DNA of 63,992 bases, filler included, from a bacterium (lineage in GTDB: Bacteria > UBA9089 > CG2-30-40-21 > SBAY01): assembly GCA_040757115.1 (NCBI GenBank). It is 4 parts of 4 records of this genome, joined end to end, with 100 filler letters (N's around TTAATTAATTAA, not from the genome) between each part and the next. Parts side by side here need not be neighbours in the genome. Positions count along the whole stretch, not along the records: positions 32,676 to 48,822 come from JBFLYA010000080.1; 3 more parts are not named here. The stretch is one strand, 5' to 3'. The notes beneath the pieces are model-generated. The model was not told the origin of the DNA. It did no database searches and saw only the letters and a list, made by a program, of their open reading frames with translations. The translations under genes were made by a program, and so were the position numbers. This document shows positions 9,318 through 53,601 of the stretch, in pieces; position 1 is the first letter of the stretch, and each line of letters opens with the position of its first letter.

Positions 9318-9945
9318 TATTATGATAGTTTTGGCAGAAGGTTAGCCAGGCAGGGTGGAAGTGAGATAAAAGTATATCTCTGGGATGGGCAGAAAGAGTT
9401 TATGGAGTATGATTTTTGGAGTGCCAAGCCATTAGGAGAATATATTTATGCAAATGACCAGCTTGTATCAAAGGATTTAGTCATGGGAGGATTATTCACT
9501 GCTTTCTTCCATCACGATGGATTAGGGAGTATAAGGGATATCACAGATAGGGGAGGAAATGTTCTAACTTCTTATGACTACGATGCATTTGGAGAGGTAA
9601 AGCAAGGCTACATTGGTAAATATAACTATAACTCCTTCACAGGCAAACAATATGACCCAGAAAGTAAGTTATTTTACTTTGGCGCAAGATGGTATGATCC
9701 CCAAGTGGGGAGATTTGTGAGTAAGGATCTAGCGAATATAGCTACAGTACAACTTCCCTATGAACATCGGCCAATAGGAAATATTGGGTCACTTCAAGGT
9801 TACATATATGATCCTACACTACACTACAACATCTTTATGTATATGTAAGCAATAATCCGATTAATTGGATTGATCTTTATGGATTACAACCACATGCAGG
9901 ATTTATAGCAGCCTTACTTAAGATGTCAAATAAGAGTAGAATAGG
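9318..9945 (+). pseudogene. Second orphan RHS core fragment, frameshifted and truncated
   Basis: Starts YYDSFGRRLARQ and is nearly identical in DNA to ~6900-7130. A shifted frame reads HLYVYVSNNPINWIDLYGL before the fragment stops at a REP-like arm. Confidence 0.8.
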
Positions 9946-30046: not shown

Positions 30047-31471
30047 CTATCTCATCGTCTTACCACTTATTACCTTTATACCTGCTTTTACCTTTTTTTT
30101 AAATTCGCCAAAGGATTTTATTTTAAGCAATTCCTTGAGGATATATGTTGGTCTTGTGTAAAAATACTTATAGGAATAATCAATTAATTCAAGTAATTCC
30201 GCAGAGGTAAGGTTTTCTTCCCAATATTCGGGTTGAAAGTTTTCTGTTGGATTTTGGGCAAAGTCGTGCCAGAAGTCTCTTTTTATAATTCCCTGTTCCA
30301 GTCCCTTTTGGTAAATATAGGTAGCCGGAAATGGCGTTGTAATGGTAATGTGGACAAAATCAGGGTTTAGTTTTTTGGCAAATTTTAAGGTTTGTAAAAT
30401 ATCCTCTTTAGTTTCTGTAGGTGAGCCAATCATAAAATAAGCCAGGGTAGAAATTCCTATCTTTTTAGTCAGACGAAATGCCTCTTCTACCTGCGTTAAT
30501 GTAATTCCTTTCCTTAAAACCTTAAGTATTTTTTCAGTTCCTGCCTCAACACCGTAATGGATTCTTTCACAATTAGCCTGTTTTAATTTTTTTAGCATCG
30601 TCTCATCGACTGTATCCACTCGCACCCTTATATCCCAGCCAATATCTAATCTTTCCTTGATAATCTCATCGCAAATATCCAATACTCGTTGTCTATCAAT
30701 GGAAAAGGTATCATCATAGATTAAAAATTCATTAATCCCCAGTTTAATACATTCTTTCATTTCCAAAATGACATTTTTCGCCGAATGTGCTCTAAATCGT
30801 TTCCCAAGGTGAGGTCTTGAACAAAAACTGCAATTATAAGGACAGCCGCGGCTGGTAATCATCGTCGTAATCGGGTTTCGTTTGGCAATCAAAGAAGAGT
30901 ATTTTTTATAAGGGACCAAATGTCTTGCCGGATGCGGGAGTTCATCTAAATTTGTTATAAAATCTCGCGAGCCGGTATTGTATATTTTCCCATTGGCTTT
31001 AAATACTAATCCAGGGATATTCTTTAATTTCTCTAAATCATTAATATTATCCACCAATTCTGCAAAGGTGATTTCTCCCTCACCTAAGACTAAAAAGTCG
31101 ATTTCAGGGAAAGATATTGTTTCGTTCGGGTAGATATAGATATGTGGACCACCTAAGACAATCTGGATTTCCTTAGAGATATTTTTAATCAGCTTAGCCG
31201 TTTTAAGAACATCAATCAATGTAAATGTCATCGTGGTCATTCCCACAACATCAGGATTGGTTTGTCTAATTTTTGATTCCAGTTCGTCGTAGTTTATTCC
31301 CTCTACCTGGGAATCCAATATCTTTACTTGATGAGATGTCCGTTTCTCAAGGTAACCAGCGATATACAGTAATCCTAATGGTGGATTATATCCTCGCTCT
31401 TCATCAATTATTGAGGGATTATTTCCTTTTAAGGTATATTTTGCTGGTGGATTGATTAATAATATTTTCAT
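30047..31471 (-). CDS. B12-binding-domain radical SAM protein
   Basis: PPLGLLYIA, LGGPH, GEGE, TSRGCPYNCSFC. Confidence 0.93.
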   Translation of the reverse strand: MKILLINPPAKYTLKGNNPSIIDEERGYNPPLGLLYIAGYLEKRTSHQVKILDSQVEGINYDELESKIRQTNPDVVGMTTMTFTLIDVLKTAKLIKNISKEIQIVLGGPHIYIYPNETISFPEIDFLVLGEGEITFAELVDNINDLEKLKNIPGLVFKANGKIYNTGSRDFITNLDELPHPARHLVPYKKYSSLIAKRNPITTMITSRGCPYNCSFCSRPHLGKRFRAHSAKNVILEMKECIKLGINEFLIYDDTFSIDRQRVLDICDEIIKERLDIGWDIRVRVDTVDETMLKKLKQANCERIHYGVEAGTEKILKVLRKGITLTQVEEAFRLTKKIGISTLAYFMIGSPTETKEDILQTLKFAKKLNPDFVHITITTPFPATYIYQKGLEQGIIKRDFWHDFAQNPTENFQPEYWEENLTSAELLELIDYSYKYFYTRPTYILKELLKIKSFGEFKKKVKAGIKVISGKTMR

Positions 31472-31727
31472 CACCAATAATATACCAGATATAGATGGTA
31501 TTTGTCAAGAAGAAGATATTGAAACTTACCCATATCTTTTAATCTTAAGTTTTTATATCTATTCAGGTTATGACAAGTTTTATTTGATATTAACTCAAAA
31601 CCCAAATGTCAAAAGTCAAATCTACAACTCAAAACTTAAAACTGATGTCCTTATTCAGCCACTGATTAACACGGATTAACACAGATAGAATAGAATGAGT
31701 TAAAATATGAAAGATAACAGAGGATAT

Positions 31728-34127: not shown

Positions 34128-34532
34128 TCAAGATGTCATCTTTTGTTCTTTTATATATCCTTCAATTCTTTCTACATACTTTTCTGCGTTCTTTATTTGA
34201 TGTTCTGCCTGTTCCTTTGTTGCTATAAAAAAATCATCATAATCACTATCGTTTCTTATTTCTTCGGCTTCTCTTAACATCTTTGAATACTCCATTTCAA
34301 TTTTCCCTGTCTTCACATAATATTGATTGAAATAAGAGATTATTCCTGAATGTTTGCTACTGTCAAACCTATCAAAAGACAATAGAGCCCTGGTTATGTG
34401 AAACATAGCATAGTAAGAACGATTTATCGACTGCGCAAATTTACCGTTATCAAAATTTATTTTTGCCGTCTCTAAATCTCCTTTTGCTTTTTCAATCCGA
34501 TAGATGGCTAAATCTTTTTCAGTTCCGTTCAT
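34128..34532 (-). CDS. HEPN-domain protein (MNT-HEPN TA toxin)
   Basis: SINRSYYAMFH, SSKHSGIISYF, RNDSDY. Confidence 0.88.
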   Translation of the reverse strand: MNGTEKDLAIYRIEKAKGDLETAKINFDNGKFAQSINRSYYAMFHITRALLSFDRFDSSKHSGIISYFNQYYVKTGKIEMEYSKMLREAEEIRNDSDYDDFFIATKEQAEHQIKNAEKYVERIEGYIKEQKMTS

Positions 34533-34881
34533 AAATAATAACTCCCTGGTTGGAAACATTTTTATAAAAAGGTAATATATCTAAATATTTGTTGTAATTT
34601 TGATAATTCTTTTTTATTACAGAGATAATAATTCCATATTCCAGTTCTAAATCAAAAATAGCATTTGTAACCACTCCATAGCATTTACTCAATTCCTCAT
34701 TGTTCAGATCAACCAAAGCCATAATATCAATATCTGATTGGCTATTATAATCACCTCTTGCATGAGAGCCAAATAAGATAACACTTTTCAACCTATTTTT
34801 AAATATATTTTCCAGTCTTTTCCTTACTTCTAAAACTATTTTTAAAACACTTTCACTTTTTATAGTTGAAATATCTTTCAT
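34519..34881 (-). CDS. Minimal nucleotidyltransferase (MNT antitoxin)
   Basis: LFGSHARGD...SDIDI. Confidence 0.9.
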   Translation of the reverse strand: MKDISTIKSESVLKIVLEVRKRLENIFKNRLKSVILFGSHARGDYNSQSDIDIMALVDLNNEELSKCYGVVTNAIFDLELEYGIIISVIKKNYQNYNKYLDILPFYKNVSNQGVIIYERN

Positions 34882-34962: not shown

Positions 34963-35700
34963 TTAATATTCCCCTGTATATCCACACATTCCGACCCGTG
35001 GAGAATTAACCACTGGCAAGAACATATCTTCGCCGCACTCATGTTTTTGAGCGCATTTATCACAAAACCATCCTTCGCCTTCATAGATACATTGTGTGCA
35101 AACCTGGGTAGCGATTTTTCCACATATCTCACAAATTATCTGAGGAGGTTCATTTCTAGCCAGAATCTGAATTGATTTGTTTTTGATATTTTCTTCGCGT
35201 TCTGATAGAACTCGCAATGTCAGATGTGTAGTGGTTCCAAAATCATATTCGTAATGGAATTTGAGACCCGGCGATAGAACAGAGCCAGTAGGGACATTCA
35301 TACTCCTCCTTGCTCTCTCTGTGCCAAATATCCCTGACCACATAGTATCTACGCCACCAGTATCTTCCTCATACTCTATATTATTGATGTAGAAAGCACT
35401 CAAATGCCAGCAGCACTCCACCCAGATATCTCTAAGAAAATTATCCAGGTCTTTGAGCTTTGCATCCCCTGGCACATCAAGATGCATCCAATACTCAGGA
35501 CTGTAACTTCCTTCAACCACAAGATGGAATACCCTCTTATCCTGCTGATTTGACTTCTGTCCAGATGATGGTTCTATTGGAGTAATCTCTCTTTGCTTAC
35601 ATGACTTCAGATGATTAGTCATTGTAGATTTTGAGAATATACCTCCGCAAAAACTACATTTTCCGTCTGATTCCTGTTTTTTTATTTTCTGCTTGCTCAT
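34963..35700 (-). CDS. pRiA4b ORF-3-like protein with Zn-finger motifs
   Basis: LDNFLRDIWVECCWHLSAF, YEYDFGTTT, PVVNSPRVGMCGY; RBS GGAGG before ATG 35700. Confidence 0.75.
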   Translation of the reverse strand: MSKQKIKKQESDGKCSFCGGIFSKSTMTNHLKSCKQREITPIEPSSGQKSNQQDKRVFHLVVEGSYSPEYWMHLDVPGDAKLKDLDNFLRDIWVECCWHLSAFYINNIEYEEDTGGVDTMWSGIFGTERARRSMNVPTGSVLSPGLKFHYEYDFGTTTHLTLRVLSEREENIKNKSIQILARNEPPQIICEICGKIATQVCTQCIYEGEGWFCDKCAQKHECGEDMFLPVVNSPRVGMCGYTGEY

Positions 35701-35895
35701 TTTAAAACCTCCTTTTTTTATAGTATTCTCGTATATCTTCCCATTTCCCCTTCCCAAAATTTTAGATAAATATCTTCAAATAAAAGTAAATTTTTATTGA
35801 AATATTATACCATATGAAACATCTCGCCATTTAATGATACCGTCGCCAATACCTGTCCCTATAGTTAAACCGATATTTCGGCTGCATATTATCTT

Positions 35896-37068
35896 TTAAA
35901 ATAAGCTCTCTTCAAATCCCTTACCCTCGGTTATAAAAGACAATTTAAAGATATTAGCAATAGTTGCGGAGATATCTGCAAAAGAATTCCTTATGCCAAG
36001 ATTAACCCCTTTTTTAACTTTGGAGCCGTAACCTATTAAAGGAACATATTCTCGTGAATGGTCTGTGCTTTTAGTTGTTGGGTCACAACCATGGTCAGCG
36101 GTTAAAATTAAAATATCTCCTTCATAAAGAGCGTCTAAAATTTCAGGTAGTCGTTTATCAAAATCTTGTAGTGCCTTGGCATAACCCCAAATATCATTTC
36201 GATGGCCGTAGACCATATCAAAATCAATCAGATTAGTAAAAATTAATCCTTTACTTTTACTCCGCATAGCCTTAATTGTTTTATCAATTCCATCTAAATT
36301 GTTCTCTATGTGAAAAGAGGTGGTAATCCCTGAACCAGCAAATATATCATTTATCTTACCAATAGCAGTAACACTAAAGCCTCCTTCCGTAAGAGCATTC
36401 AGGATAGTTGGTCGAAAGGGAGCAATAGAATAATCTTTTCGCAGATGATTAATTCTCTTAAACTCTCCTACTTTACCTCCAAACGGTCGAGCTATCACTC
36501 TATTAACAGCATGTTCACCTACTAAAATCTTCCGTGCTATTTCACAAAACCTGTATAATTCCTCAATCGAAATAATATCTACATGAGTAGCTATCTGGAA
36601 GACGCTATCTGCTGAGGTATAAACTATTGGAAAACCAGTCTCTAAATGTTGCTTCCCTAATTCTTTTATAATCTCAGTTCCAGAAACAGGTTTATTGCCC
36701 AAGATATCCCTCCCGATAGCTTCTTTAAATGGTCTAATTATCTCCTCAGGGAAACCCATTGGATACAGAGGAAAAGGCTTTTTTAGAACAAGCCCCGCTA
36801 TCTCCCAATGTCCGGTGGTAGTATCCTTACCCACGGACTTTTCAATCATTTTACCAATAGCTGCTGCTGGAGTTAGTACTGGCTTTACTCCTTTAATTTG
36901 ACCAAGATTCCCTAATCCTAACTTAGCTAAATTAGGTAAGGAAAGTCCACCAACTGCGTTGGATAAGTTAACCAGGGTATTACTTCCTTCATCTCCATAA
37001 TGCTTAGCATCGGGTAACTCTCCAATTCCTACACTATCTAAGACTATCAAAATAAAACGATTAATCAT
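35896..37068 (-). CDS. deoB: Phosphopentomutase
   Basis: [52 protein letters not shown]. Confidence 0.96.
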
Positions 37069-37214: not shown

Positions 37215-37919
37215 TTAACATATTCTATTAATAATAATCTCTGTTGCTATTGCGGAATCTTTTGTGATGACCATATCTACTATTATCCTTGCTACATCAT
37301 AAGGGTTCATGAACTTTGAAGTATCCACAGATAAACCACAATCTTCAGTCCAGAATGGTGTATTCATACCTCCAGGATAAACAGCGATTACTTTAATCGG
37401 GGTTCCTTTCGTTGCTGCTTGTATTGCTTCGGTATAACCTCGTGCACCCCATTTTGCAGCACAGTAAACTGACTCTTGTGGCTTACCCGTATGAGCAGCA
37501 GTTGACATAATATTTACAATAATGCCTCCTTTATCTTTCATCACTTTAAGGGCATAGGACGAAAGTAATATTGTACCGACCAGATTAGCTTCGAAAACCT
37601 TATCAATCATTTCTTTCGAGACTGAGTCAGGATCGCCAAAGAGCCCCATTCCTGCAACATTGAATACCATATCAACCTCAAAATTATTCTCTGTAATATA
37701 TTGGAATAGTTTGCTTACATCATTCTCATTTCCTACATTTGCAATATAGCTATGCAATTGTGCTGAACTTGATATTGAGGAAAGTTTAGAGATAGCCCTG
37801 TTGAGCTTTGAATCCAATCTTGAAGTAATACAGACATTATACCCATTTTCAAGTAAACATTTAGCAATCTCGTAACCCAGTCCTGAAGAACCACCGGTAA
37901 CCAATGCTATCTTGTGCAT
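37215..37919 (-). CDS. SDR-family oxidoreductase
   Basis: TGGSSGLG, NVAG, S...YCAAK. Confidence 0.93.
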   Translation of the reverse strand: MHKIALVTGGSSGLGYEIAKCLLENGYNVCITSRLDSKLNRAISKLSSISSSAQLHSYIANVGNENDVSKLFQYITENNFEVDMVFNVAGMGLFGDPDSVSKEMIDKVFEANLVGTILLSSYALKVMKDKGGIIVNIMSTAAHTGKPQESVYCAAKWGARGYTEAIQAATKGTPIKVIAVYPGGMNTPFWTEDCGLSVDTSKFMNPYDVARIIVDMVITKDSAIATEIIINRIC

Positions 37920-37957
37920 AATAATCTCCCCTTTTGGAGAATTTTCTTCTCTCTATT

Positions 37958-39142
37958 CTATAAACTGCCAATAGGAGTGGATAAATTTTGCAGATGCTTT
38001 AACCCCTCTCTATATGCCTGATACTGCGGTGTAGGTTGTTGTGTTACCCATGTATAATCAAAAGCTGGGCATACCCTTATGTCAGCATCCCAGATATATG
38101 GGCTGATGTGGATACGTCCCCCCGGTTCATCCCAGTCCCAATATGAGGCGAAGTAGAACGGGCGATCATACTCCCGGAAATCAAGACTCCGGACATGACC
38201 GTTCAGAACCTTACGCAGATTTTTTATTGCCGTTTGCTTGTCCCGGAGAAGCTTCTCGTGCCCCCTTTCTTTCGTTTCCATCCATTGCAAAATATTATCC
38301 TTGAGGAAAAAGATGTCTATCCGTTCCCAGTTCTTGGACGGATTATTTCTCAATACCTTTACAATAATGTTGGCCAACTGGTCGTTGGTAGCGCCTACAA
38401 ATGCTAATTTGTTATGTTTATTAAGGAGTTCTTCGGGAGGAATCTTTTTATCTTTCCAGCCGTATTTGTCTACAGACAGAATCGGCGGTTCAATTTGCAG
38501 ATGCCACTTGTTTGCAGGTGCACCGGACTTCCCAAAAGGATATTCTCTGCCATCCCGGATTATCCTTCCGGTCACATTTTTGACCGTTATAATCTCGTTA
38601 TGTTTAGCAATCACCTCATATTCCTCAGGCTCAATCTGATATTTAAAGTCGTTGTGCTTACTCTGGTCATCTGGATCCAGACGTTGGGTGAATTCTTTAT
38701 GGCGAACCAACAGTTGTCCAGGCTCGGCGGCGTCCATGATGCGCTGAGCTACATTAATGGCTGCTCCGCAAACATTCGTCTGGTCGTATGGGTCCTTAAC
38801 CAGGTCAAGTTCACCCTGATTGATTCCGCATCGTATACCTATCTTTGGGTCGTGTGTATTTGCCCATACCATCATACTTCCAGCCAACCACAGAGCGGTG
38901 TGCTCTCGCTGGGGATGAGCATCAGCCTTCTTCCACAGGACCACCACAGCACCGTCTCCAGTGGGCAAAAGACAGTATCGGCTGTCGTCCGAGCGATCGG
39001 GCGGTACTCCCCATAGGTAGACCAGTAAGGTTTTTAACTTTTCAAAGAATGATCTGGCGATAGATAATTGAACCGGATCCCAATTCATCGAGAACGCGGC
39101 CAAATCGACGAAGAGGATGGTTCCGGTACGTTCGTCATTCAT
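37958..39142 (-). CDS. Class III nucleotidyl cyclase fused to a PLD/DUF5919-like C-terminal domain
   Basis: ILFVDLAAFS, PTGDGAVVV, IRCGINQG, GAAINVAQRIMD. The C-domain (LAFVGAT...IDIFFL...RIHISPY) is a lower-confidence fold guess. Confidence 0.8.
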   Translation of the reverse strand: MNDERTGTILFVDLAAFSMNWDPVQLSIARSFFEKLKTLLVYLWGVPPDRSDDSRYCLLPTGDGAVVVLWKKADAHPQREHTALWLAGSMMVWANTHDPKIGIRCGINQGELDLVKDPYDQTNVCGAAINVAQRIMDAAEPGQLLVRHKEFTQRLDPDDQSKHNDFKYQIEPEEYEVIAKHNEIITVKNVTGRIIRDGREYPFGKSGAPANKWHLQIEPPILSVDKYGWKDKKIPPEELLNKHNKLAFVGATNDQLANIIVKVLRNNPSKNWERIDIFFLKDNILQWMETKERGHEKLLRDKQTAIKNLRKVLNGHVRSLDFREYDRPFYFASYWDWDEPGGRIHISPYIWDADIRVCPAFDYTWVTQQPTPQYQAYREGLKHLQNLSTPIGSL

Positions 39143-39213
39143 GAGTAATCCTCCCTATGAAAATATCTGAATCAAAGATAGTCAATTCAAAGCCCCCATA
39201 GTTTCTCTGAATT

Positions 39214-39984
39214 TTATTCTATTGGACTTTCAAAAAAATTTACATTTATCTGTCCATACTTTATATGAGCTTGATTATCGCAAACTTTACAAGGGTCATA
39301 TAAATCACGGCGACCTTCTATAAGATTTTGTCTCATTTTATTAAAAGTATCTGAGAACCATACTTCTTTTATGCTTTTATCTTTAATATTACCAAATCTA
39401 TTTATTCTTCTTGCATCTTCATAACATAATAAAATATCGCCATTATATGCTATAACGAGTCGGTGTCGAGGAACAAAGCATGGCAGATTTAATGTTTTGA
39501 TACAACCTAATACCCCGCCTTTGTTATTAATATGAAAATTTTCAAGTACAGTTTGAAAAGGACGAAGTGGAAATTCTTTTTTGGAATGATTTGAGATTAC
39601 AATTAGAGTTACTCCTGATTCTACTAATTTATTATATTTTGATTCAGTTAATTTATCACCATTTGTATATAATATACGTTCAGCTCTGGGGTGGAGTTTT
39701 TCAGTCGCATATTTTATTATCCATTCTATTTGAGGATGGAGTAAAGGTTCACTATAAAAATGAAAAGAAAGTCGTCCTGAAAAACCGAGTTCTTTTAACT
39801 CATCAATTATCTTTGTGTAAAGATTATCATCCATCAGTTGAGGTGGATCAATTGGATCAATTATCGAATTAGGACAGTATGAACAATAGCTTCCAGAAAG
39901 ATCTTTCATATTACACGCGGTATTAATTTCTATTTCAACCCTGCTAAAAATATCTGGAATTTTAGAAGAATAATTCTCAATCAT
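39214..39984 (-). CDS. Radical SAM/twitch (SPASM) enzyme, BtrN-like
   Basis: EIEINTAC-x9-CSYCPNS, GRLSFHFYSEPLL, YTNGD, NKGG, CFVP, CYED, CKVC. Confidence 0.85.
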   Translation of the reverse strand: MIENYSSKIPDIFSRVEIEINTACNMKDLSGSYCSYCPNSIIDPIDPPQLMDDNLYTKIIDELKELGFSGRLSFHFYSEPLLHPQIEWIIKYATEKLHPRAERILYTNGDKLTESKYNKLVESGVTLIVISNHSKKEFPLRPFQTVLENFHINNKGGVLGCIKTLNLPCFVPRHRLVIAYNGDILLCYEDARRINRFGNIKDKSIKEVWFSDTFNKMRQNLIEGRRDLYDPCKVCDNQAHIKYGQINVNFFESPIE

Positions 39985-41033
39985 TTATATAACTCCATAA
40001 TAGCTTTAACCAAATTTTCTTTTAATTCCGTTAAGTTTGACAATTCATATTTTATTTGAATATTATTAGCTATGTCAGATGCTGATTCTCCCGGAGATTG
40101 ATTTATCAACACCGTTTTTTTGCCTAAGCCAATACCCATGCCATATTCGTAGAGGACATTGGGGTTATTACCTGTTAAATCTACAATTAAAAGTGAAGCT
40201 TCAGAGATACATTGGGATAATGAACTGTCAATTTTACCCGAACGGAGTACGTCGTGTCGTTTACATTGATACTTTGCCGGCAAGTTATAAATACTATTAG
40301 TAAAAATTTCCATAATAGAAGAATATACTTCATCGAATTTTTTACTAAAAGGCATAATTATAAATACTTTATTATTAGTTATTGGTATAGGGGTGCAACG
40401 ATACTTATTCTTTTTCTTAGCCAACTCAATTGCAATATCGACTGCTATTTTCCCTATTTGCTGTTGGTTAGAAATGAGGTTTAGTTTGTCCAAGTCCTCA
40501 ATTTTTTTTGAAATAAAATTGCTTTTATAAAAACAATATGGAGGAGACGGATCGTCAAATCTTGACCTTATGAGATTCCAACATTCAAGGCTGGAACCAC
40601 CTGTAGGCCAAATTGGAATAACTGGCGTTCCAACATTTAAACAAGATTCTATCTCTGCTCCCGTACCCTTGCCTCCTTCTATTGTTATTAGAGAATCTAT
40701 CAAAGAGGCCATAAAAGGTCGTCTTTCAGGTCTCGTTTTACCCTGACAGACAAATTTATTACCTTGAGCTATGGTTGTAAATTTTTGACCTGGAATTTTA
40801 TCATCTGGAAGTATAGAAATGATCCTGTGCTGTTGTTCTATTGTATCGCTTAAAGAATCAGCCGCCTTTTGAGCACAATACTGAGTTAATCCACCTGCGC
40901 ACCCGCCGCTAACAAGTCTATGACCTCTTTTCATTATTTCTTCACCGAGTGTTTCTGCTAATATCTGATATTTAATAGATTTCTCTCGATCACTTGTACC
41001 TGCAAAGCCAATAAAATAACCATTTATTATCAT
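39981..41033 (-). CDS. SLOG (LOG-like) domain fused to a nucleoside-2-deoxyribosyltransferase-like domain
   Basis: LVSGGCAGG, EGGKGTGAEI...PVIPIWPTGGSS; then KVFIIMPF...IVDLTGNNPNVLYEYGMGIG. Confidence 0.8.
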   Translation of the reverse strand: MIINGYFIGFAGTSDREKSIKYQILAETLGEEIMKRGHRLVSGGCAGGLTQYCAQKAADSLSDTIEQQHRIISILPDDKIPGQKFTTIAQGNKFVCQGKTRPERRPFMASLIDSLITIEGGKGTGAEIESCLNVGTPVIPIWPTGGSSLECWNLIRSRFDDPSPPYCFYKSNFISKKIEDLDKLNLISNQQQIGKIAVDIAIELAKKKNKYRCTPIPITNNKVFIIMPFSKKFDEVYSSIMEIFTNSIYNLPAKYQCKRHDVLRSGKIDSSLSQCISEASLLIVDLTGNNPNVLYEYGMGIGLGKKTVLINQSPGESASDIANNIQIKYELSNLTELKENLVKAIMELYK

Positions 41034-41078
41034 AAAAATCTCCTCCTTTTTAATAACCTCTCTCTTATGTAGTCATGA

Positions 41079-41139
41079 TTATAACGCCAGAGTTCAGCCG
41101 TCCCGTTCCAGCGGGGTAGGCTGCAGCGAGTCGTCATCC
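41079..41139 (-). other. Degenerate integron attC site
   Basis: Minus strand GGATGAC-gactc-GCTGCAGCCTACCCCG-ctggaa-CGGGACGGCTGAAC-tctggc-GTTATAA. Confidence 0.65.
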
Positions 41140-42161
41140 ATTGCAGACTCTGGTTCTTTAGGGATAGTAGGAGGCCAGTCTCCTTCTTTAAAACGATTCT
41201 CAATCTTGGCAAAGTCAATTTCTAGCAGACTACGTAGCATGTCTTTATCTTTATACTTACTATCAAGTCTTACTGTCTTTTCACTGCGCCAAGGCTCCTC
41301 AAAATGATTAGCTCTGAATTTCTTAAAAATAGAATTTGGATCTTCTGTATCTTCTATTATTAGGGTGAAGTTGTCGTATACAGGACCGTGTAGAGTGCTA
41401 GCGTTTACCAACATTGCTCTACTTGTAAAGATGGCATATGCCGTTATTACACCTGGATACAAACGGATATTCTTCCGGTCGAGTAGGCCCCCCTTGGGGC
41501 TTTCCTGAGACTCTACGGATTTACCATCGAGGATATCTTTTGCAAGATACTTGAGTGTGCGTTGAATATCTCTAGCTACAGCAGCCCGTTCACGATTCTC
41601 TACTCTCTCTCTAAATTCTCCATAAGCTGGGTGCATTAGCAATGCTCTAATCCTAACATTATTTTCAAGTTTATGTTTGAGTAAGTGGTACAGTTGTTTC
41701 TTTTCTTCGCTTTCCTCTGCTGGGTCAAGTGAACCAAGAAGAGAAGTTCCAACAAAATCAATTGATTTATCTTCTCGCTCAAGCTCGCTCCGGAATTTTT
41801 GCATAGCTGAGGAACGATTGGCAAAAACACCTATTACACCAGCTTCATAAAATATTTGTATTTGCCGAAGTTTTTCTACAGCAACATCAAGATCACTTAT
41901 CGGCTTTTGTAACGCCCTTGCAGCTTCTTTGCTGACCCCTTTTTGAATAAATCCCACGATAATATTCCCTATTGCAGTTACAGCAAGGGCAGCTAAGAAC
42001 GACAGGATGGGTGTGCGATAATTCCCAATAGGAATTTCTGGTGGAACTATCGCAAAGAACACAAAGCCAAGAAGCAACAAAATACCCGAAACAATTAGAA
42101 AGACGTACTCTATTGGCAACTGAGTTCCGCCTCTTTGAATTCCATTTTCTTTTTTCATCAC
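41094..42161 (-). CDS. Two-TM protein with a cytoplasmic PLD/DUF5919-like domain
   Basis: Two N-terminal TM helices; IDFVGTSL...VRIRALLMHP...NIRLYPG...AIFTSRAMLVN...F..PW; no HKD motif. Confidence 0.65.
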   Translation of the reverse strand: MMKKENGIQRGGTQLPIEYVFLIVSGILLLLGFVFFAIVPPEIPIGNYRTPILSFLAALAVTAIGNIIVGFIQKGVSKEAARALQKPISDLDVAVEKLRQIQIFYEAGVIGVFANRSSAMQKFRSELEREDKSIDFVGTSLLGSLDPAEESEEKKQLYHLLKHKLENNVRIRALLMHPAYGEFRERVENRERAAVARDIQRTLKYLAKDILDGKSVESQESPKGGLLDRKNIRLYPGVITAYAIFTSRAMLVNASTLHGPVYDNFTLIIEDTEDPNSIFKKFRANHFEEPWRSEKTVRLDSKYKDKDMLRSLLEIDFAKIENRFKEGDWPPTIPKEPESAMDDDSLQPTPLERDG

Positions 42162-42204
42162 TTAACCTCCCTATTTATAATGGATAGCAAATTTATCCAT
42201 CCCA

Positions 42205-44169
42205 TCATATTTTCAAATTAATTAGCGATTGTTGGTAATCTTTAATCTCACCTTTATCCTTTCCTTCAATGTAGTATCTAATCAATGCGTCTGTGCCGGA
42301 GGCGCGGATAAGAAACCAGAAGTCATCGAACTCCATGTATGTTCCCTCCAATAGCTTGCCCTCGCCTACGAGGCAGACCCGCTTCGGTTTAGGTATAGCC
42401 CTGTCCGCATCAGTCAGCCTTGAGTTAATCTCGTCGTGTATCTCGTCCAGAGATTTTCCGGCTGATGCTTGTTCGGCCAGTTTCTTGAAAAAATTCATGA
42501 TTCTGTCTCTGGTTTGTTCTCCATCAGATTTAGCTTTTTGTAGGTCAGCTCCGGTCAGGCTTTCATCGTATAGCCTTATATCTCTGCGGTCAAAAAATCT
42601 GTTCTGTATGTTATACTTCTCTATCAAGCTGGAGTAGTAATTCGCGAATGACTGATTCGAATTGTATAAATGAGCTGCCAGTGATAATGCCATCAGACCG
42701 AACTGCATGCCATCCTTCTCGCGAAGTGCTATCAGGCCTTTTGAGCCGCTTTCGTTCATGAGTAACTCTATTCCGCCGAAGACGGCACCACCAGACTCTT
42801 CGCACATAATCAAGGCTCGTGGCTTCTCGCCTATGTAAATCTTGTCCCCGATGGCGTTGATGAAGGGTTCATTAGAGTCAGTGCGATTTTCGAGCCATTC
42901 GGAGAAGGTACCCATATATTTAAAACCTACGCGGACATGGGCAACCGGTATATTTTCCTGTGCGGCGAGTTCGCTAATCGAACGGGAAGTAGAAATAGAA
43001 GGGGTAATGAACCAATTGAAAACATTGAGCAATCCAGCCTCCTTCAGAACGCTAATCCGGTAAGCAGTCAGCATAAAAAAGAGCTGGTTGGGCGAAAAAT
43101 AGACAATGGACTTATCTCTACCGGGATACAAATCAACCTTAAGGCCAAGTATCTCAGCCTGTTTGGCTTGTTCCGCAGAGGTTATGGTAACAATATTGAA
43201 CCTATCGCCGTCCGGATCCCAGATGAAAACAATATCTGCCTTGCCATTAAGCAATATCTCCTGGGCGCCAATGTTCTTGTAGACCTCCTGCTTGCTGGGG
43301 TCAGGTCCGAAATGCTTCCCGTCTTTCTCGCCAAGTTGATGGTATTGTGAATCCTCTTCTCCAAAGAGATATTGAATGATGCCATCCTGACCTATGGAGA
43401 TGTCAAGCATCGGGAACAAACGTTCGGTAGTAGCCTTCATTGAACCGCCAACTGTACAAATTGTACATCGGAACCCTTTTTCTTTAGCTCGCTTAATATC
43501 ATCTTTGGATTTGTCAACAATTACTGATTGTTGGTACTTTATATAAGCCTGGTCAACATTGAAATCATAAATAATCTTCTCTTTTAATCCCCATGGCGCA
43601 AGGCTTATTTTTTCCCGGTTGTTGACAATATTCCTTACCTCAGAGATAATTTCTTTTTCTTCTGTGAGGAGCTGTTTGCCGGCTGAGTCCATAGGCTTCC
43701 ATCCCCCTTTAAAAAAAGGCGAATGACTGGCGGTAAGGTTATCCCCACTTTGATATTCCTTATAAAAGGTTCCAAAAGAAGAATACCAGATTGGGGTTGT
43801 TTTAATATCTGCTCTAAGATGTACTTTTATATTGTGAGCGGCATACACTCGGGACAGAAGAGCGATGAAATCCTGGGTATGCGGTCGTGTTTCTCCTCCA
43901 ATGTGCACTTGTCCCTGTTCAAAAGGTGCAAGTTTTCGTTTAAAGACTCTGGCTTTGGCTTCACCCAAAATAGCAATTGTAAGCGAATTAAATGCAACCT
44001 CTGGATCATTAGCGTCTTTTGGGTTTAATTGGTCCCGGTAGCCTGCGGTCATTAAGGAAAACTCCTCTGCCCATTTCTCAAGAGAATATGAGGCAACTAT
44101 TTCTTCAGAGAGTACGATTTCTTGCCACTCTTTTCCATAGGGGTTAATTTCAAGCCTTTTTGAACTCAT
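42205..44169 (-). CDS. Divergent alpha-D-phosphohexomutase (PGM/PMM superfamily)
   Basis: TAGYR, TASHSP, DPDGDRF, VGFKYM, CEESGG, EKDG, RASGT. Confidence 0.88.
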   Translation of the reverse strand: MSSKRLEINPYGKEWQEIVLSEEIVASYSLEKWAEEFSLMTAGYRDQLNPKDANDPEVAFNSLTIAILGEAKARVFKRKLAPFEQGQVHIGGETRPHTQDFIALLSRVYAAHNIKVHLRADIKTTPIWYSSFGTFYKEYQSGDNLTASHSPFFKGGWKPMDSAGKQLLTEEKEIISEVRNIVNNREKISLAPWGLKEKIIYDFNVDQAYIKYQQSVIVDKSKDDIKRAKEKGFRCTICTVGGSMKATTERLFPMLDISIGQDGIIQYLFGEEDSQYHQLGEKDGKHFGPDPSKQEVYKNIGAQEILLNGKADIVFIWDPDGDRFNIVTITSAEQAKQAEILGLKVDLYPGRDKSIVYFSPNQLFFMLTAYRISVLKEAGLLNVFNWFITPSISTSRSISELAAQENIPVAHVRVGFKYMGTFSEWLENRTDSNEPFINAIGDKIYIGEKPRALIMCEESGGAVFGGIELLMNESGSKGLIALREKDGMQFGLMALSLAAHLYNSNQSFANYYSSLIEKYNIQNRFFDRRDIRLYDESLTGADLQKAKSDGEQTRDRIMNFFKKLAEQASAGKSLDEIHDEINSRLTDADRAIPKPKRVCLVGEGKLLEGTYMEFDDFWFLIRASGTDALIRYYIEGKDKGEIKDYQQSLINLKI

Positions 44170-44189
44170 TATCTTCCTCCAAAAAAAAA

Positions 44190-45038
44190 TTAATCTATGA
44201 ATTTAAGTTCATGAAGTTTATCTATCGTTTCGCGCCAGGAACTTATTTGAATCGCTTCTACTGGACATCTGGACTCTGAAGGCCATGCTTTAATAAACTC
44301 ATTGATAGCCGCATCGTTTCCACCTTCAAACAAGGCGTCACCCATGAACACAACTCTTTGGAAGCCTTTTTTCAATAATGTGCGTATTGGTTTGGTTTTA
44401 TCTTCACCAACTATACCTATATCAAAAGATGTTTGGCCACCAAAGGTAATTTTTAGCTGTTTTTCATTTATCAAGGAGGACAACTCCTGATTAAGATGTT
44501 CTAAAACTTTTTTTCTGTAATCATTTGCTCGATCGAACGCTACGAAATTATCTCTGTTGTTTTTACCCTCTGTGTCCTCCTGCTCCATTCTGCCAATAGG
44601 GCATAGGTTTATCATTGATACTCTATCGACTATTCTTCCATCGCGTATCTTTAGCGAAGGTGGTAAGCGAAATTTTTCCATTTCTAAAGTTTCGGTCAAT
44701 CTCTTTAATAAGTAATTATAATTGGCCTCGCCAAGATACTTCCTGAGGTTGAACTCTGAAACCAATTTGATTGACATCTCCTTAGAATAATCGCACTGAT
44801 AATGCATAGCGCCGTTACTGAGAAAGGCGTCAAATTGTTTGCGAAAGCCGAGAGCATAAAGTGGTCTAAAAAACTGCTCTTGTAAAAGCGAGAGGTGACT
44901 CCCAGCGGCTACGAAAAAAGGAACGCGTAATCGGCCCAACACCTTCACCATTGATCTGGTAATCGGCTGACGGGGAGGCGTAAGAGTACTATCAATATCG
45001 AAGACTAAAACCGTTTTCATTATTTTTTGAGATATCAT
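44190..45038 (-). CDS. Eukaryote-type phosphomannomutase (HAD-IIB, PMM1/PMM2-like)
   Basis: FDIDSTLTPPRQ, SNG, RVSMINLCPIGR, GGQTSFD, DK, FMGD...GGND. Confidence 0.85.
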   Translation of the reverse strand: MISQKIMKTVLVFDIDSTLTPPRQPITRSMVKVLGRLRVPFFVAAGSHLSLLQEQFFRPLYALGFRKQFDAFLSNGAMHYQCDYSKEMSIKLVSEFNLRKYLGEANYNYLLKRLTETLEMEKFRLPPSLKIRDGRIVDRVSMINLCPIGRMEQEDTEGKNNRDNFVAFDRANDYRKKVLEHLNQELSSLINEKQLKITFGGQTSFDIGIVGEDKTKPIRTLLKKGFQRVVFMGDALFEGGNDAAINEFIKAWPSESRCPVEAIQISSWRETIDKLHELKFID

Positions 45039-45254
45039 TATAACTTTCTTTAGGAGTTACTCCAACTCCTTTTCTCTCTGGAACACCGTAAGCAAGTCTA
45101 CATGGGACAATACGCTCCTCTTTGTATTCTATCCGATGACATCATTTCCTCAATAGATTTTAAAATCACTTTCCTGGAAAATCTGACGATGGTTACCTCG
45201 GTGTTATACAGTGCGGTACCTAATTACTACCAGTGATATCCGAACCCTACACAT

Positions 45255-45284
45255 ATTCTACAACATCCCTATCCATTTTGTCAA
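45255..45284 (-). promoter_or_regulatory. Putative promoter of the 7-gene island
   Basis: TTGACA-18 bp-TAGAAT, about 215 nt upstream of 45038. Confidence 0.5.
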
Positions 45285-45361
45285 GGATTAATTCTGAAAC
45301 GGGTGGATGTAATAAATATGGGTAACTTTTTTTACCACAAAGGCACAAAGACATAATATTT

Positions 45362-46860: not shown

Positions 46861-47415
46861 TTAAAATATCTCTTTTAGATTAAAGTTTAGCCCTTTGATT
46901 AACTTTGATTTAACCACATCCCCTATTTTATAAATGCCCGTATCTTCATAGAACTTGCCGGTATGAGAAAATATCTGGAGTGTCTTTTTATCTGCATCGA
47001 CTATCCAGTATTCTTGAACCCGATAGGTCTCATAAAGTCTCTTTTTTAATAGTTTATCCAAATTTTGGGTATAAGGAGAGGTGATTTCGATAATTAAATC
47101 AGGTACACCTTCTATACACTTATCTGTAATGATAGACATCTTTTCCTTAGAGATAAAAAATATATCTGGTTGAACCACATTTTCATCTGATAAAACAACA
47201 TCACAAGGGGCATAAAATACTTCCCCTAAATTACCCCTGGTAACAAATTCATCAATAATTTTACCAAGTTTTCTAATAATCCTTTGATGATACGGAACTG
47301 GTGCTGGACTCATATAAACCTTCCCCTGAATTATTTGATACCTTTTCCCATTATCGGGAAACTGGACATAATCTTGATATGTCCAGTTTTCTTCCTCTGT
47401 GGCTACTGTTGACAT
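46861..47415 (-). CDS. Uma2-family (DUF820) endonuclease-like protein
   Basis: MSPAP..HQ, VVQPDI, PDLIIEITSP, EYWIVD. Confidence 0.92.
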   Translation of the reverse strand: MSTVATEEENWTYQDYVQFPDNGKRYQIIQGKVYMSPAPVPYHQRIIRKLGKIIDEFVTRGNLGEVFYAPCDVVLSDENVVQPDIFFISKEKMSIITDKCIEGVPDLIIEITSPYTQNLDKLLKKRLYETYRVQEYWIVDADKKTLQIFSHTGKFYEDTGIYKIGDVVKSKLIKGLNFNLKEIF

Positions 47416-48822: not shown

Positions 48823-48922
48823 NNNNNNNNNNNNNNNNNNNNNNNNNNNNNNNNNNNNNNNNNNNNTTAATTAATTAANNNNNNNNNNNNNNNNNNNNNN
48901 NNNNNNNNNNNNNNNNNNNNNN
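48823..48922. other. Artificial contig linker
   Basis: N-run containing TTAATTAATTAA. Confidence 0.95.
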
Positions 48923-50540
48923 GTATTTCAACGCCTGTTCCAATTCCCCCATATCGCTATAAACTATGCCGATATTGCCCAGGTCAGAAGCCTCTCCCGA
49001 CAGATACCCTATCTGCTTATGGAGCTCAAGAGCCTGCTTATGGTATTTCAACGCCTGTTCCAATTCCCCCATATCGTAATAAACCGAGCCGATATTGCCC
49101 AGTTGATTAGCCTCTCCCTGCAGATACCCTATCTGCTTATGGAGCTCAAGAGCCTGCTTGAAGTATTTCAACGCCTGTTCCAATTCCCCCATATCGCGAT
49201 AAACTATGCCGATATTGCCCAGGTCAGAAGCCTCTCCCTGCAGATACCCTATCTGCTTATCTATCTCAAGAGCCTGCTTATGGTATTTCAACGCCTGTTC
49301 CAATTCCCCCATATCGCTATAAACCAGGCCGATATTGCCCAGTTGATTAGCCTCTCCCTGCAGATACCCTATCTGCTTATCTATCTCAAGAGCCTGCTTA
49401 TGGTATTTCAACGCCTGTTCCAATTCCCCCATATCGCGATAAACCAGGCCGATATTGCCCAGGTCAGAAGCCTCTCCCTGCAGATACCCTATCTGCTTAT
49501 CTATCTCAAGAGCCTGCTTGAAGTATTTCAACGCCTGTTCCAATTCCCCCATATCGCGATAAACCAGGCCGATATTGCCCAGTTGATTAGCCTCTCCCTG
49601 CAGATACCCTATCTGCTTATCTATCTCAAGAGCCTGCTTTAGGTATTTCAACGCCTGTTCCAATTCCCCCATATCGCGATAAACCAGGCCGATATTGCCC
49701 AGGTCAGAAGCCTCTCCCTGCAGATACCCTATCTGCTTATCTATCTCAAGAGCCTGCTTGAAGTATTTCAACGCCTGTTCCAATTCCCCCATATCGCGAT
49801 AAACCAGGCCGATATTGCCCAGGTCAGAAGCCTCTCCCTGCAGATACCCTATCTGCTTATCTATCTCAAGAGCCTGCTTGAAGTATTTCAACGCCTGTTC
49901 CAATTCCCCCATATCGCGATAAACCAGGCCAATATTGCCCAGGTGATTAGCCTCTCCCTGCAGATACCCTATCTGCTTATCTATCTCAAGAGCCTGCTTG
50001 AAGTATTTCAACGCCTGTTCCAATTCCCCCATATCGCGATAAACCAGGCCAATATTGCCCAGGTGATTAGCCTCTCCCTGCAGATACCCTATCTGCTTAT
50101 GGAGCTCAAGAGCCTGCTTATGGTATTTCAACGCCTGTTCCAATTCCCCCATATCGCGATAAACCAGGCCGATATTGCCCAGTTGATTAGCCTCTCCCTG
50201 CAGATACCCTATCTGCTTATCTATCTCAAGAGCCTGCTTGAAGTATTTCAACGCCTGTTCCAATTCCCCCATATCGCGATAAACTATGCCGATATTGCCC
50301 AGGTCAGAAGCCTCTCCCTGCAGATACCCTATCTGCTTATCTATCTCAAGAGCCTGCTTATGGTATTTCAACGCCTGTTCCAATTCCCCCATATCGCTAT
50401 AAACCAGGCCGATATTACCCAAGGCAGAAGCCTCTCCCTGCAGATACCCTATCTGCTTATCTATCTCAAGAGCCTGCTTGAAGTATTTCAACGCCTGTTC
50501 CAATTCCCCCATATCGCGATAAACCAGGCCAATATTGCCA
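48923..50540. repeat. 120-bp coding tandem repeat, about 13.5 units
   Basis: Every second 60-nt line of the listing repeats almost exactly. Confidence 0.97.
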
Positions 50541-51277
50541 ATGACTGTTGCTTCATTTCTGTAAATTTTGGCTCTTTTAAACAGTGGCAGGGCTATTTCA
50601 TAATACCTTAGCGCATCCTGGAAATTTGAAAGCTCCTGGTGAAGGTAGCCAATCTCAAAAGCCAGGTCAGCCTTTGCTTCTTCAGATAACGACTCTGCCT
50701 GAGTTCTGAAGGTTTCTGTCAGAGAGGCAAGCCTCTGCTCATTTTCCGAAGGTTCTTCTGCCTTTTGAGCAATTTCCCGGCGAACCTTTGCCTCATCTCC
50801 AAACCGGAAGACACCTGACTTAAATGTATAAAAATCCGGGGCTTTAAAGATAACCAGGTTTAAGAGAGAATCATCTACGAAGAATATCAGACTGAGATTT
50901 TGCTGACCGATTTTATCTCGGTTAAGGTTTATCCCCTGCAGAAACCGGCTAAGGCTCGGCTCATCTTCCCTGATAGAGACAATATCCCGGATTAAAAAGA
51001 CAGGTTTCAAACAGGGTTTGGGCTTGGTTAAAAAGTACTGCTCAATTTTGGCAAAGGGGTCAATTATGGTTGGCGACAAAAAGATAGAATAGCAATCAAA
51101 CTCCCTGGCCATCTCACTTGCGATTCTCTCAGCCAGTTCATTTTCTACATCCGAAGTTTCACAACTAATAAAAAAAAGGCAGCCCCGGTTTTTAAAAAGG
51201 CGGAGTTGATGAAAGAGGCGGGGAATCTGAAGTTCATCCTTTTTACGAAAGACAACTGTTTTATCAGGCTTTTTCAT
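48923..51277 (-). CDS. TPR protein with a degenerate NTPase-like N-domain and at least 13.5 near-identical 40-aa repeats (3' end truncated by contig end)
   Basis: GINLNRD...APDFYTFKSGVFRF N-domain; repeat GEAxxLGNIGxVYxDMGELEQALKYxKQALExxKQIGYLQ. Confidence 0.9.
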
Positions 51278-52962: not shown

Positions 52963-53601
52963 TCACCCTTGCCGACCAGAATTTCCTCCCCATTTAATTT
53001 CTTTTACTTCTGACTCAAAAAAATCTTTTACTTTCGCCCAATCGATTTCAATCAACAGGTTAGGCATAGGTTCTTTGTCAGCATCATCAAAATAAGTTAA
53101 ACTTTTAAGAATGTGAATAATATTATAATTTACACTTTTATATTTTTCTCTAAAAAATCCTAATATTTCCCTGAGATGTCTTTTTTGTTGACAAATGACA
53201 TATAAATCAATAAAATCTCTTCGACTTCCTCTTGAGGAAATAGCATCCATCTTCATACAAGCAATATCTAAAATATCTGCTACTTTTATGCCCATAAAAT
53301 CTTTAGTTGAAAACAAAAGTGGATAGGGATATTTAAAAAAACTAACTTTTGTTCCTTCAAATATTCCTATAACTGTATTAGGTGACTTTTTTTCCAATAT
53401 AAAATCACCTTTTTCTATAAGTCTTTCTATACATAAATTAGTATCAATATCCATTGGTGTAAAGAAATCTAAATCCAATGATTGACGATGTCCTAATTGT
53501 AACGCTACTCCTGTTTCACCTACTAAATAATAATCCTTACATAGTAATCTTAATAATTCCATATTGGACTTTGTTGCTTTTGAAATGACCTTTTCAAACA
53601 T
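52963..53601 (-). CDS. AbiEii/AbiGii-family nucleotidyltransferase toxin
   Basis: YYLVGETGVALQLGHRQSLDLDFF, IACMKMDAISSRGSRRDFIDLY. Confidence 0.88.
   Translation of the reverse strand: MFEKVISKATKSNMELLRLLCKDYYLVGETGVALQLGHRQSLDLDFFTPMDIDTNLCIERLIEKGDFILEKKSPNTVIGIFEGTKVSFFKYPYPLLFSTKDFMGIKVADILDIACMKMDAISSRGSRRDFIDLYVICQQKRHLREILGFFREKYKSVNYNIIHILKSLTYFDDADKEPMPNLLIEIDWAKVKDFFESEVKEIKWGGNSGRQG

Follow-up and report, generated by a model that had tools for sequence, protein, structure and literature searches.

The genome of an uncultivated groundwater bacterium (GCA_040757115.1) contains seven open reading frames at positions 37215–45038 of the window, i.e. of the whole stretch of DNA that was analyzed (63,992 nucleotides, filler included). 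These open reading frames, termed g1 to g7, are all on the minus strand and lie head to tail (Table 1). They are predicted to encode two sugar-phosphate mutases (g1, g2), a membrane protein (g3), a SLOG-domain protein (g4), a radical SAM enzyme (g5), a nucleotide cyclase (g6) and a short-chain dehydrogenase/reductase (SDR, g7). The g3 and g6 proteins each display a domain of the phospholipase D (PLD) fold that lacks the catalytic motif, and the operon is tentatively interpreted as a conflict-type signaling system built around this domain.

Table 1. Features of the seven-gene locus and its immediate surroundings (window positions).
Feature	Predicted product or sequence	Positions	Strand	Basis
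Promoter-like site	TTGACA-18-TAGAAT	45255..45284	-	best match of region, 11/12
g1	HAD-IIB eukaryote-type phosphomannomutase-like enzyme, 282 aa	44190..45038	-	Pfam PMM and PMM2 structures
g2	divergent four-domain alpha-D-phosphohexomutase, 654 aa	42205..44169	-	PGM_PMM domains I-IV
g3	two transmembrane helices, long helix and non-catalytic PLD-fold (DUF5919-like) domain, 355 aa	41094..42161	-	predicted model
g4	SLOG (LDcluster4) and C-terminal NDT/TIR-like N-glycosidase-type domain, 350 aa	39981..41033	-	Pfam, PADLOC
g5	BtrN-type radical SAM alcohol dehydrogenase homolog, 256 aa	39214..39984	-	BtrN 4m7t, Pfam
g6	class III nucleotide cyclase (1-202) and non-catalytic PLD-fold domain (216-394), 394 aa	37958..39142	-	predicted model
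g7	classical SDR, 234 aa	37215..37919	-	adh_short
deoB	phosphopentomutase, possibly associated, outside the counted unit	35896..37068	-	NF003766

The successive gaps from g1 to g7 are 20, 43, 60, -4, 71 and 38 bases. The co-oriented layout with short gaps (-4 to 71 bases, all genes on the minus strand) described in the initial annotation of this DNA is thus borne out. The start of g5 overlaps the stop of g4 by 4 bases, and an ATG one codon inside the called open reading frame is the likelier start of g3. No convincing intrinsic terminators were found between the seven genes. There are 323 intergenic bases upstream of g1 and 146 between g7 and deoB. A single putative promoter had been proposed for the operon; the site in Table 1 is the best match of the region and is separated from g1 by a leader of about 210 nt, but the promoter scan overall was not above chance (42 sites vs 36 ± 5.8 in shuffled sequences). 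A riboswitch in the 323-base leader was considered and rejected, as the whole window has no Rfam match and the region is not conserved upstream of g1 in seven other loci. Base composition is mosaic, as had been remarked. The GC content at third codon positions (GC3) is 0.385, 0.455, 0.337, 0.256, 0.163, 0.501 and 0.294 for g1 to g7, i.e. it ranges from 0.16 in g5 to 0.50 in g6, where the overall GC of the window is 0.356.

Neither g3 nor g6 has a match to Pfam, NCBIfam or PADLOC v2.0.0 models at E ≤ 0.01. Alignments were made of 25 g6 relatives (42%–82% identity) and 30 g3 relatives (43%–75%) and both proteins were folded; the mean predicted local distance difference test score is 86.2 for the g6 model and 82.4 for the g3 model. 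Residues 1–202 of g6 display a class III cyclase fold (Foldseek E-value 6e-10), with a Z-score of 19.4 and a root mean square deviation of 2.4 over 170 aligned residues for structure 3et6. Uridylate and cytidylate cyclase structures of the PycC type are also found among the matches (Z 14–16). Amino acids D13, D63, N130 and R134 are invariant or nearly so in the 25 relatives and align with the stretches FSDIVGF, GD and NIAARL of CyaC. We take D13 and D63 to be the metal-binding aspartate pair, and N130 and R134 to be the transition-state residues.

The C-terminal part of g6 (residues 216–394) has a PLD-superfamily fold, which resembles SauUSI (Z 10.7), the sugar-binding domain of TrmB (10.3), FAM83B (10.1) and NucT (10.0). 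The g3 model displays two hydrophobic helices and a long helix, with helical segments at residues 16–37 and 45–105, and residues 104–314 again have the PLD fold, with SauUSI (Z 12.4), vaccinia F13 (11.8), FAM83B (11.4), TrmBL2 (11.2), NucT (11.0) and Nuc (10.9) among the matches. Taken over both proteins, the PLD-fold matches (SauUSI, NucT, Nuc, Zucchini, FAM83B, F13 and BfiI) have Z-scores of 9.5–12.4 with 126–158 residues aligned. In TrmB and TrmBL2 the equivalent domain binds sugars. The catalytic motif of the PLD/HKD superfamily is HxK(x)4D, and this is not found in either protein. An invariant histidine is present in each, H345 in g6 (RIHISP) and H176 in g3 (MHPAYG), with no lysine at position +2; both domains therefore fall outside the canonical HKD enzymes.

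Both PLD-fold domains have DUF5919 clusters as their closest models in the ESM Atlas, with TM-scores by query of 0.66–0.80 in a comparison of predicted with predicted models. For those neighbors whose aligned part is itself named DUF5919 the scores are 0.74–0.79 (g6) and 0.66–0.72 (g3). The DUF5919 neighbors are fused to HEPN_SAV2148, HTH, CAP12-type TIR, DUF4062 or cyclase domains. SAV_2148 is noted, in a passage of PMC3710099, as a HEPN domain fused to a phospholipase D nuclease domain. A search of g3 and g6 with the Pfam DUF5919 (PF19319) and TrmB models gave no match, for DUF5919 even at E ≤ 10. All seven domain assignments of the initial annotation are confirmed, although its PLD/DUF5919-like label for g3 and g6 is right at the level of fold only, because neither the Pfam DUF5919 model nor a profile comparison of the two domains gave a match.

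The g6-type domain is widespread. When residues 205–394 of g6 were searched against 1.84 billion representatives, 217 representative clusters were found at E ≤ 1e-3 and 146 at 1e-10. The match is nearly always C-terminal, in proteins that range from 200 to more than 1000 amino acids. A g6-like cyclase domain is present in 26 of the 101 listed representatives of at least 300 amino acids. Among 67 representatives that were scanned with Pfam, six have Peptidase_C14, four Metallophos_2, two Metallophos and one Trypsin_2; with PADLOC, ten match the "caspase" model and one a reverse transcriptase-protease model. The other scanned representatives have N-terminal regions without Pfam assignment. One C-terminal domain that is carried on many enzyme and killing heads, and that also occurs in HTH versions echoing TrmB, displays a pattern that would fit a ligand-sensing domain.

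A second, independent fusion of a cyclase with a putative sensor is present in a Flavobacteriales metagenome-assembled genome (L018:215-1843, plus strand). The fusion protein of 542 amino acids joins a cyclase to a PLD-fold domain of the g3 type and not of the g6 type, and it is followed by a 166 amino acid protein with one hydrophobic helix.

The g4 protein has a SLOG domain of the LDcluster4 family (E-value 6.2e-7, 29.6 bits, Pfam cut-off 26.3), with matches below cut-off to the LOG-type models TIGR00725 and TIGR00730. Residues 110–333 match the PADLOC model PDLC00733, "Effector TIR", at 5.1e-7. The protein itself has no PF05014 match, and CAP12-PCTIR_TIR is found at 0.12; a relative, P0177 (28% identity, 1e-20), carries both PF05014 and PF18306. 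The family is rare. It has 16 full-length members, and full-length g4 was found in one of 301 genomes of the order of G041 and in none of 24 genomes of the phylum of the window. A single-sequence scan of genome contigs with g4 found no locus.

The g5 protein displays Radical_SAM and SPASM domains (Pfam), and residues 8–238 match the BtrN structure 4m7t at 5.5e-40 with the four auxiliary-cluster cysteines aligned. BtrN is the radical SAM 2-deoxy-scyllo-inosamine dehydrogenase of butirosin biosynthesis. An insertion of six residues in the loop of the radical SAM cluster of g5 (residues 24–37) makes the cluster motif CX9CX2C instead of CX3CX2C. No g5 relatives were found in the 301 genomes of the order of G041 at 1e-20. 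Pfam and NCBIfam scans of the seven genes show no partner genes of the 2-deoxystreptamine pathway. The g7 protein matches adh_short at 3.8e-42, and the nearest structures are the uncharacterised SDRs 3l6e and 3guy.

The first two genes of the operon encode sugar-phosphate mutases of different families. The g1 sequence matches Pfam PMM at 3.4e-21 (76.5 bits, cut-off 22.4), residues 6–246 match eukaryote-type PMM/PMM2 structures at 8e-20, and DIDST is present near the N-terminus. In g2 all four PGM_PMM domains (I–IV) are detected weakly, with E-values from 4.6e-11 to 9e-4 and with domain II below cut-off. The g2 sequence contains TASHSP, DPDGDR, CEESGG and RASGTD, which are presumably the canonical phosphoserine, metal, sugar and phosphate loops of alpha-D-phosphohexomutases.

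The search for g2 relatives yielded 36 genome loci. A g1 gene is directly upstream of the g2 homolog in seven of the eight loci with at least 59% g2 identity (L064 and L066–L071), the contig of the eighth being too short, and in none of the 28 more distant loci; it is also directly upstream in the metagenome locus L033. Several other genes recur around the pair. An NAD-dependent epimerase/dehydratase gene is found in L033, L030, L071 and L096, a PfkB kinase gene in L070 and L071, and deoB abuts the pair in L067 too, where it is convergent. A 2H-like gene with two HxT motifs recurs in L064, L068 (a fragment), L033 and L030. Membership of the 235 amino acid L033 protein in the 2H group was considered and not accepted, as the two HxT motifs are its only basis and it has no Pfam or Protein Data Bank sequence match. 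In L064 a g4 homolog (56%–58% identity), preceded by a GFO/IDH/MocA oxidoreductase gene, is convergent to g1, g2 and the 2H-like gene. Thus g1 and g2 are a recurrent pair that is often beside a 2H-like, epimerase, deoB, PfkB or SLOG-NDT gene.

The frame g1-g2...g6-g7 is repeated in only two loci, both from metagenomes. In L033, g1 (71% identity), g2 (84%), g6 (82%) and g7 (78%) enclose three genes that differ from those of the window. L030, which is cut within g2, has g2 (63%), g6 (57%) and g7 (67%) with the same three middle genes as L033, and its genes overlap or are separated by 8-base gaps. The middle genes are the 2H-like gene, the epimerase gene and a gene for a protein of 381 (L033) or 385 (L030) amino acids whose N-terminus matches TIR_2 weakly (E-values 1e-4 and 7e-4, under the Pfam cut-off). 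A hidden Markov model was built from the C-terminal domains of these TIR-like proteins and of the L018 fusion; in a small database of 334 proteins its next 27 hits are all members of the g3 family, with E-values from 7e-6 to 0.04. Thus, in L033 and L030 a TIR head takes the place of the two-helix membrane head of g3, and the domain that bears it is of one type in all three loci. The slot of the radical SAM dehydrogenase is filled in both loci by an NAD-dependent sugar oxidoreductase.

The seven genes had been described as one island, and this holds only in part. They are not one conserved unit, although g1, g2, g6 and g7 recur together in the two loci. The g3 relatives stand apart in both loci seen, the L064 g4 homolog is beside g1-g2 without g3 and g5 to g7, and no g5 relatives were found in the 301 genomes searched. 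The initial annotation had taken a complete lack of co-occurrence in other genomes as the sign of chance accretion; since only g1, g2, g6 and g7 recur, and with a single origin, about half of that objection applies.

A single-sequence scan of genome contigs with g6 found nothing. The alignment-based scan found g6 relatives in ten loci without the island sugar enzymes (L004, L005, L006, L028, L029, L031, L032, L034, L035 and L042). ThsB-like/TIR_2 genes adjoin the g6 homolog in six of the ten: L005 has three, one of them split by an insertion sequence, L006, L029 and L031 have two each, and L035 and L042 one each. The TIR proteins of different g6 loci are mutually homologous (41%–56% identity). 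NUDIX genes are present in two of the ten loci, L029 and L035. No TIR gene is found beside the g6 homolog in L004, L028, L032 and L034, several contigs being only 2–8 kb. By analogy, the layout of the g6 family, in which one to three TIR genes surround one gene for an enzyme with a putative sensor, is Thoeris-like. No g6 or g3 family relatives were found in viral contigs, and no g6 relative in plasmids.

Other features of the loci with g6 or g4 relatives were observed. A small family without Pfam match is represented by L064:14956-15450 (minus strand, 164 amino acids) and L004:5448-5993 (minus strand, 181 amino acids), which are 39% identical (4e-22). Its L064 member adjoins the pair of oxidoreductase and g4 homolog, and its L004 member adjoins the g6 homolog; g4-type and g6-type modules are therefore tied a second time. 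In L005 (8384-9931) the split TIR gene is the ThsB-like gene directly upstream of the g6 homolog, and the inserted gene (8595-9455) encodes an IS4/5-family transposase. The 2.9 kb upstream of the g6 homolog in L004 (1119-4042) have no frame above 106 codons and no N; they may represent gene remnants or non-coding sequence. A genome of the window's phylum (G024:C123:18933-23270; L112, L001) has a RecQ gene followed by a 588 amino acid open reading frame with a g6-like cyclase domain (34% identity). This RecQ is 68% identical to the RecQ that is 1.5 kb downstream of g7 in L033 (L033:11267-15724).

No described catabolic operon or named defense system was matched by the island in NCBIfam and PADLOC scans, which agrees with the initial annotation, where no named system with this combination was recognised. 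There are several likenesses to Thoeris systems. Small ThsB-like TIR genes, one to three in number, enclose or adjoin the g6 relatives, and the g3 layout of membrane helices plus sensor is as in type II effectors. Both g3 and g4 would combine a toxic or enzymatic domain with one that senses a ligand. In its main text, 10.64898/2025.12.03.692087 describes 29 putative Thoeris types, types I–XI among those named, and includes an NDT-like "CMP hydrolase" effector (ThsI) and systems with a TIR-plus-SLOG effector; the SLOG sensor of g4 is as in ThsA-type effectors and its NDT-like head as in ThsI. That main text, as distinct from Table S1 and Figure 1C, has no mention of a cyclase effector, PLD or DUF5919. 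Unlike Thoeris, the sensor domain of g6 would be the PLD-fold, DUF5919-like domain and its head is a nucleotide cyclase, and the window operon also has sugar-phosphate mutases, a radical SAM enzyme and an SDR. In a literature search DUF5919 was not found mentioned, and Thoeris, ThsB and "guanylate cyclase" were not found together.

Pycsar and Pucsar systems are similar in having a minimal class III cyclase with conserved catalytic residues in one operon with a transmembrane or TIR effector; that their effectors are TIR or transmembrane proteins is stated in part of the text of 10.64898/2026.08.12.744502, and section 5 of that paper describes no cyclase clade with the g6 architecture. They differ in that the island effectors have no cyclic nucleotide (cNMP)-binding domain, g6 matches no PADLOC model, and the g6 cyclase carries the PLD-fold C-terminal domain and not AGS-C or none. 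The TrmB, TrmBL2 and HTH-DUF5919 proteins likewise join an output domain to a PLD-fold domain without the HKD motif (Z 10.0–11.2; Atlas TM-scores 0.66–0.80), but the island outputs are a cyclase, membrane helices or TIR and not DNA-binding domains, and there is no match to the TrmB or DUF5919 models. The g5 protein is like BtrN in its full-length alignment and conserved auxiliary cysteines. It differs from BtrN in the CX9CX2C motif and in its context, which is a SLOG-NDT gene and not an aminoglycoside cluster; the island has no 2-deoxy-scyllo-inosose synthase or aminotransferase. The combination of sugar-phosphate enzymes with three immune-type sensor or effector proteins was not found described in the literature and is known from the three related loci only.

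The reading that we prefer, with a little less than even confidence, is that the operon is a conflict-type (anti-phage or abortive-infection-like) signaling system around a shared non-catalytic PLD-fold sensor, and that the sugar and nucleotide enzymes make or process the ligand of this sensor. The g3 protein, with its PLD-fold domain and two membrane helices, would be a candidate membrane-damaging effector. The g6 protein, whose catalytic residues are in place, may be a ligand-gated maker of cNMP or consumer of nucleoside triphosphates. The g4 protein could be a second sensor-plus-enzyme (SLOG and NDT-like N-glycosidase) of the Thoeris-effector type, or the supplier of the sugar-phosphate moiety. 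The g1, g2, g5 and g7 enzymes would make, tailor or clear the sugar-phosphate or nucleotide-derived ligand of the PLD-fold domains; in the simpler relatives the ThsB-like TIR proteins encoded alongside would be its source. A defense or signaling role had been suggested earlier, and it gains appreciable support from the TIR adjacency, the TIR swap of the membrane protein, and the caspase-like and other enzyme fusions.

Several findings weigh against this reading. No conflict gene accompanies the pair g1-g2 in L066, L067, L070 and L071, and in L067 and L068 the pair is surrounded by ribosomal, mnmG and riboflavin genes. The g3 homologs of L062 and L063, which are both of the genome loci seen, have no other island genes nearby, and the examined neighbors of g6 in L004, L005, L028 and L032 are ordinary genes and not defense islands. 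On the g6 tree the window, L033 and L030 fall into one clade (support 100/99), therefore the association of the enzymes with the sensor arose once; the g2 tree gives no resolution on this origin. No TIR gene was found in the whole window (tblastn, E < 0.01), the seven proteins have no PF08937 or PF13676, and g3 and g6 lack a PADLOC match. A profile comparison of the g3-type with the g6-type domain was not significant (hhalign probabilities below 3%), and the kinship of the two domains is therefore at the fold level only. The counts of presence and absence are soft because many contigs are 2–8 kb.

A different explanation, which we regard as rather unlikely, is that two unrelated units came to lie side by side: a horizontally mobile operon for sugar phosphates, in which 2H-like, epimerase, deoB and PfkB genes may be added to g1-g2, and a conflict cassette of PLD-fold effector, SLOG-NDT and cyclase-PLD genes that landed downstream of it once and was retained thereafter, the enzymes having no signaling role. 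The single origin on the g6 tree and the sharp GC3 differences between neighboring genes are consistent with this, as are the independent occurrences of the parts, i.e. g1-g2 in seven genome loci without g6, g7 and g3 (two of them among housekeeping genes), the g6 family in ten loci without the island sugar enzymes, and g3 relatives alone in both loci seen. Against it, the arrangement is kept down to 57%–67% protein identity, with 8-base gaps or overlaps in L030, and the conflict-type genes of the window are interleaved with enzymes (g3, g4, g5, g6, g7). It is only in the combined loci, i.e. the window, L033 and L030, that a g7-type SDR comes after the g6 homolog. The rare g4 family is beside g1-g2 in two loci in different orientation, and the oxidoreductase slot is retained although the families differ (radical SAM in the window, epimerase in L033 and L030, GFO in L064).

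It is quite unlikely that the operon is instead a regulated metabolic pathway without immune function, i.e. one for catabolism, salvage or synthesis of a modified sugar, cyclitol or nucleoside (possibly an antimetabolite), in which the PLD-fold domains are TrmB-like sugar sensors that tune the cyclase and the membrane protein. The replacement of the membrane protein by a TIR-like protein in L033 and L030, the TIR genes with the g6 family in six of ten loci, and the caspase-like and trypsin-like fusions of the g6-type domain are not in keeping with such a pathway, even though five of the seven genes encode sugar or nucleotide enzymes and g5 shows close homology to BtrN (5.5e-40). A metabolic role would also agree with the presence of TrmB and TrmBL2 in the lists of structural matches, the frequency of HTH-DUF5919 proteins among the Atlas neighbors, the gene for a Crp-type cNMP-binding regulator ahead of the g6 homolog in L028, and the deoB, PGM and ROK kinase genes that flank the island. 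However, none of the seven genes encodes a glycosyltransferase, aminotransferase, sugar-phosphate cyclase, nucleotidyltransferase or transporter; moreover g2 was not found in five close relatives, nor g6 and full-length g4 in the family and phylum genomes searched.

A logic like that of Pycsar, with the g6 cyclase as generator of a cNMP whose reader is the PLD-fold domain on g3 (in L033 and L030, the one on the TIR-like protein) and with the domain of g6 itself as input sensor of infection, is similarly improbable: the conserved cyclase residues, the PycC-type structures among the g6 matches (Z 14–16), the cyclase and PLD-fold effector genes in one operon at three loci, and the TIR or transmembrane effectors that part of 10.64898/2026.08.12.744502 gives for Pycsar and Pucsar are in its favor, but a search for cNMP_binding in g3 and g4 gave no match even at E ≤ 10, g6 has no PADLOC match, the checked neighbors in the ten simpler loci include no second PLD-fold gene or cNMP-binding effector, and the small ThsB-like TIRs of those loci have no sensor domain. 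A common upstream ligand fits better, because the same type of domain is present on generator and effector.

If the preferred reading of a shared PLD-fold sensor is true, a PLD fold without catalytic motif would be a new sensor domain of immune signaling that is common to cyclase, TIR, membrane, caspase-like and HEPN proteins. A ligand-gated nucleotide cyclase would then be a new partner of multi-TIR (Thoeris-like) loci and would chain two signaling chemistries. The operon would be the first operonic link found between such modules and sugar-phosphate mutases together with a BtrN-type radical SAM enzyme, and this link would suggest that the ribose-phosphate moiety of the signal is tailored or recycled. 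A more specific form of the proposal, which must be considered highly unlikely, is that the PLD-fold domain is the receptor for a non-nucleotide messenger, namely a sugar phosphate or an oxidised pentose or hexose (bis)phosphate, made from the N-glycosidase product by the dedicated mutases and oxidoreductases and switching on the membrane effector and the cyclase together. The operon would in that event be an immune pathway with a tailored sugar phosphate as alarm molecule. Should the sugar enzymes prove to be bystanders, the cyclase-PLD protein with its TIR genes would still be a candidate defense system.

The seven-gene block is flanked by a PGM/PMM gene and by deoB (NF003766, 528 bits vs a cut-off of 256), as the initial annotation had it. 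To call these flanks housekeeping is doubtful, because deoB was found in only one of five family-level relatives and because G001, the nearest genome, is nearly without match there. G001, with 32% shared words, has only one weak DNA match of 141 bases (71% identity, window 45153-45293) between about 35076 and 46851. Among the same five family-level relatives g2 was found in none, and when 40 relatives were searched with g6, no more than weak matches to the cyclase domain appeared, in two of them. The block is accessory and foreign in composition.

The wider flanks contain a HEPN-nucleotidyltransferase pair, a PRiA4_ORF3-like gene, a Uma2 gene, a gene for a large TPR protein and an AbiEii gene, mixed with the ROK kinase, deoB and PGM genes. 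Two genes downstream of deoB, at 34128-34881 (minus strand), is the pair, which is toxin-antitoxin-like and consists of overlapping HEPN (143 amino acids) and nucleotidyltransferase (120 amino acids) genes. An AbiEii-type nucleotidyltransferase toxin gene (52963-53601, minus strand) and a plasmid-type PRiA4_ORF3-like gene (34963-35757, minus strand) frame the region, which suggests a variable neighborhood rich in mobile elements.

The Uma2-family gene (46861-47415, minus strand), of putative restriction endonuclease fold, is located just upstream of PGM. One contig of the nearest genome (G001:C56) has at least four matches to it with 71%–83% DNA identity. In L077, L078 and L098, too, a member of its protein cluster is found ahead of the g2 homolog. 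Two overlapping genes occupy 48875-52580 (minus strand), one for the TPR protein, an all-TPR protein of 800 amino acids (44%–48% GC in the window of 35.6% GC), and before it one for a 438 amino acid protein without Pfam match. A B12-binding radical SAM protein of 476 amino acids is encoded about 6 kb downstream of the island (30047-31477, minus strand).

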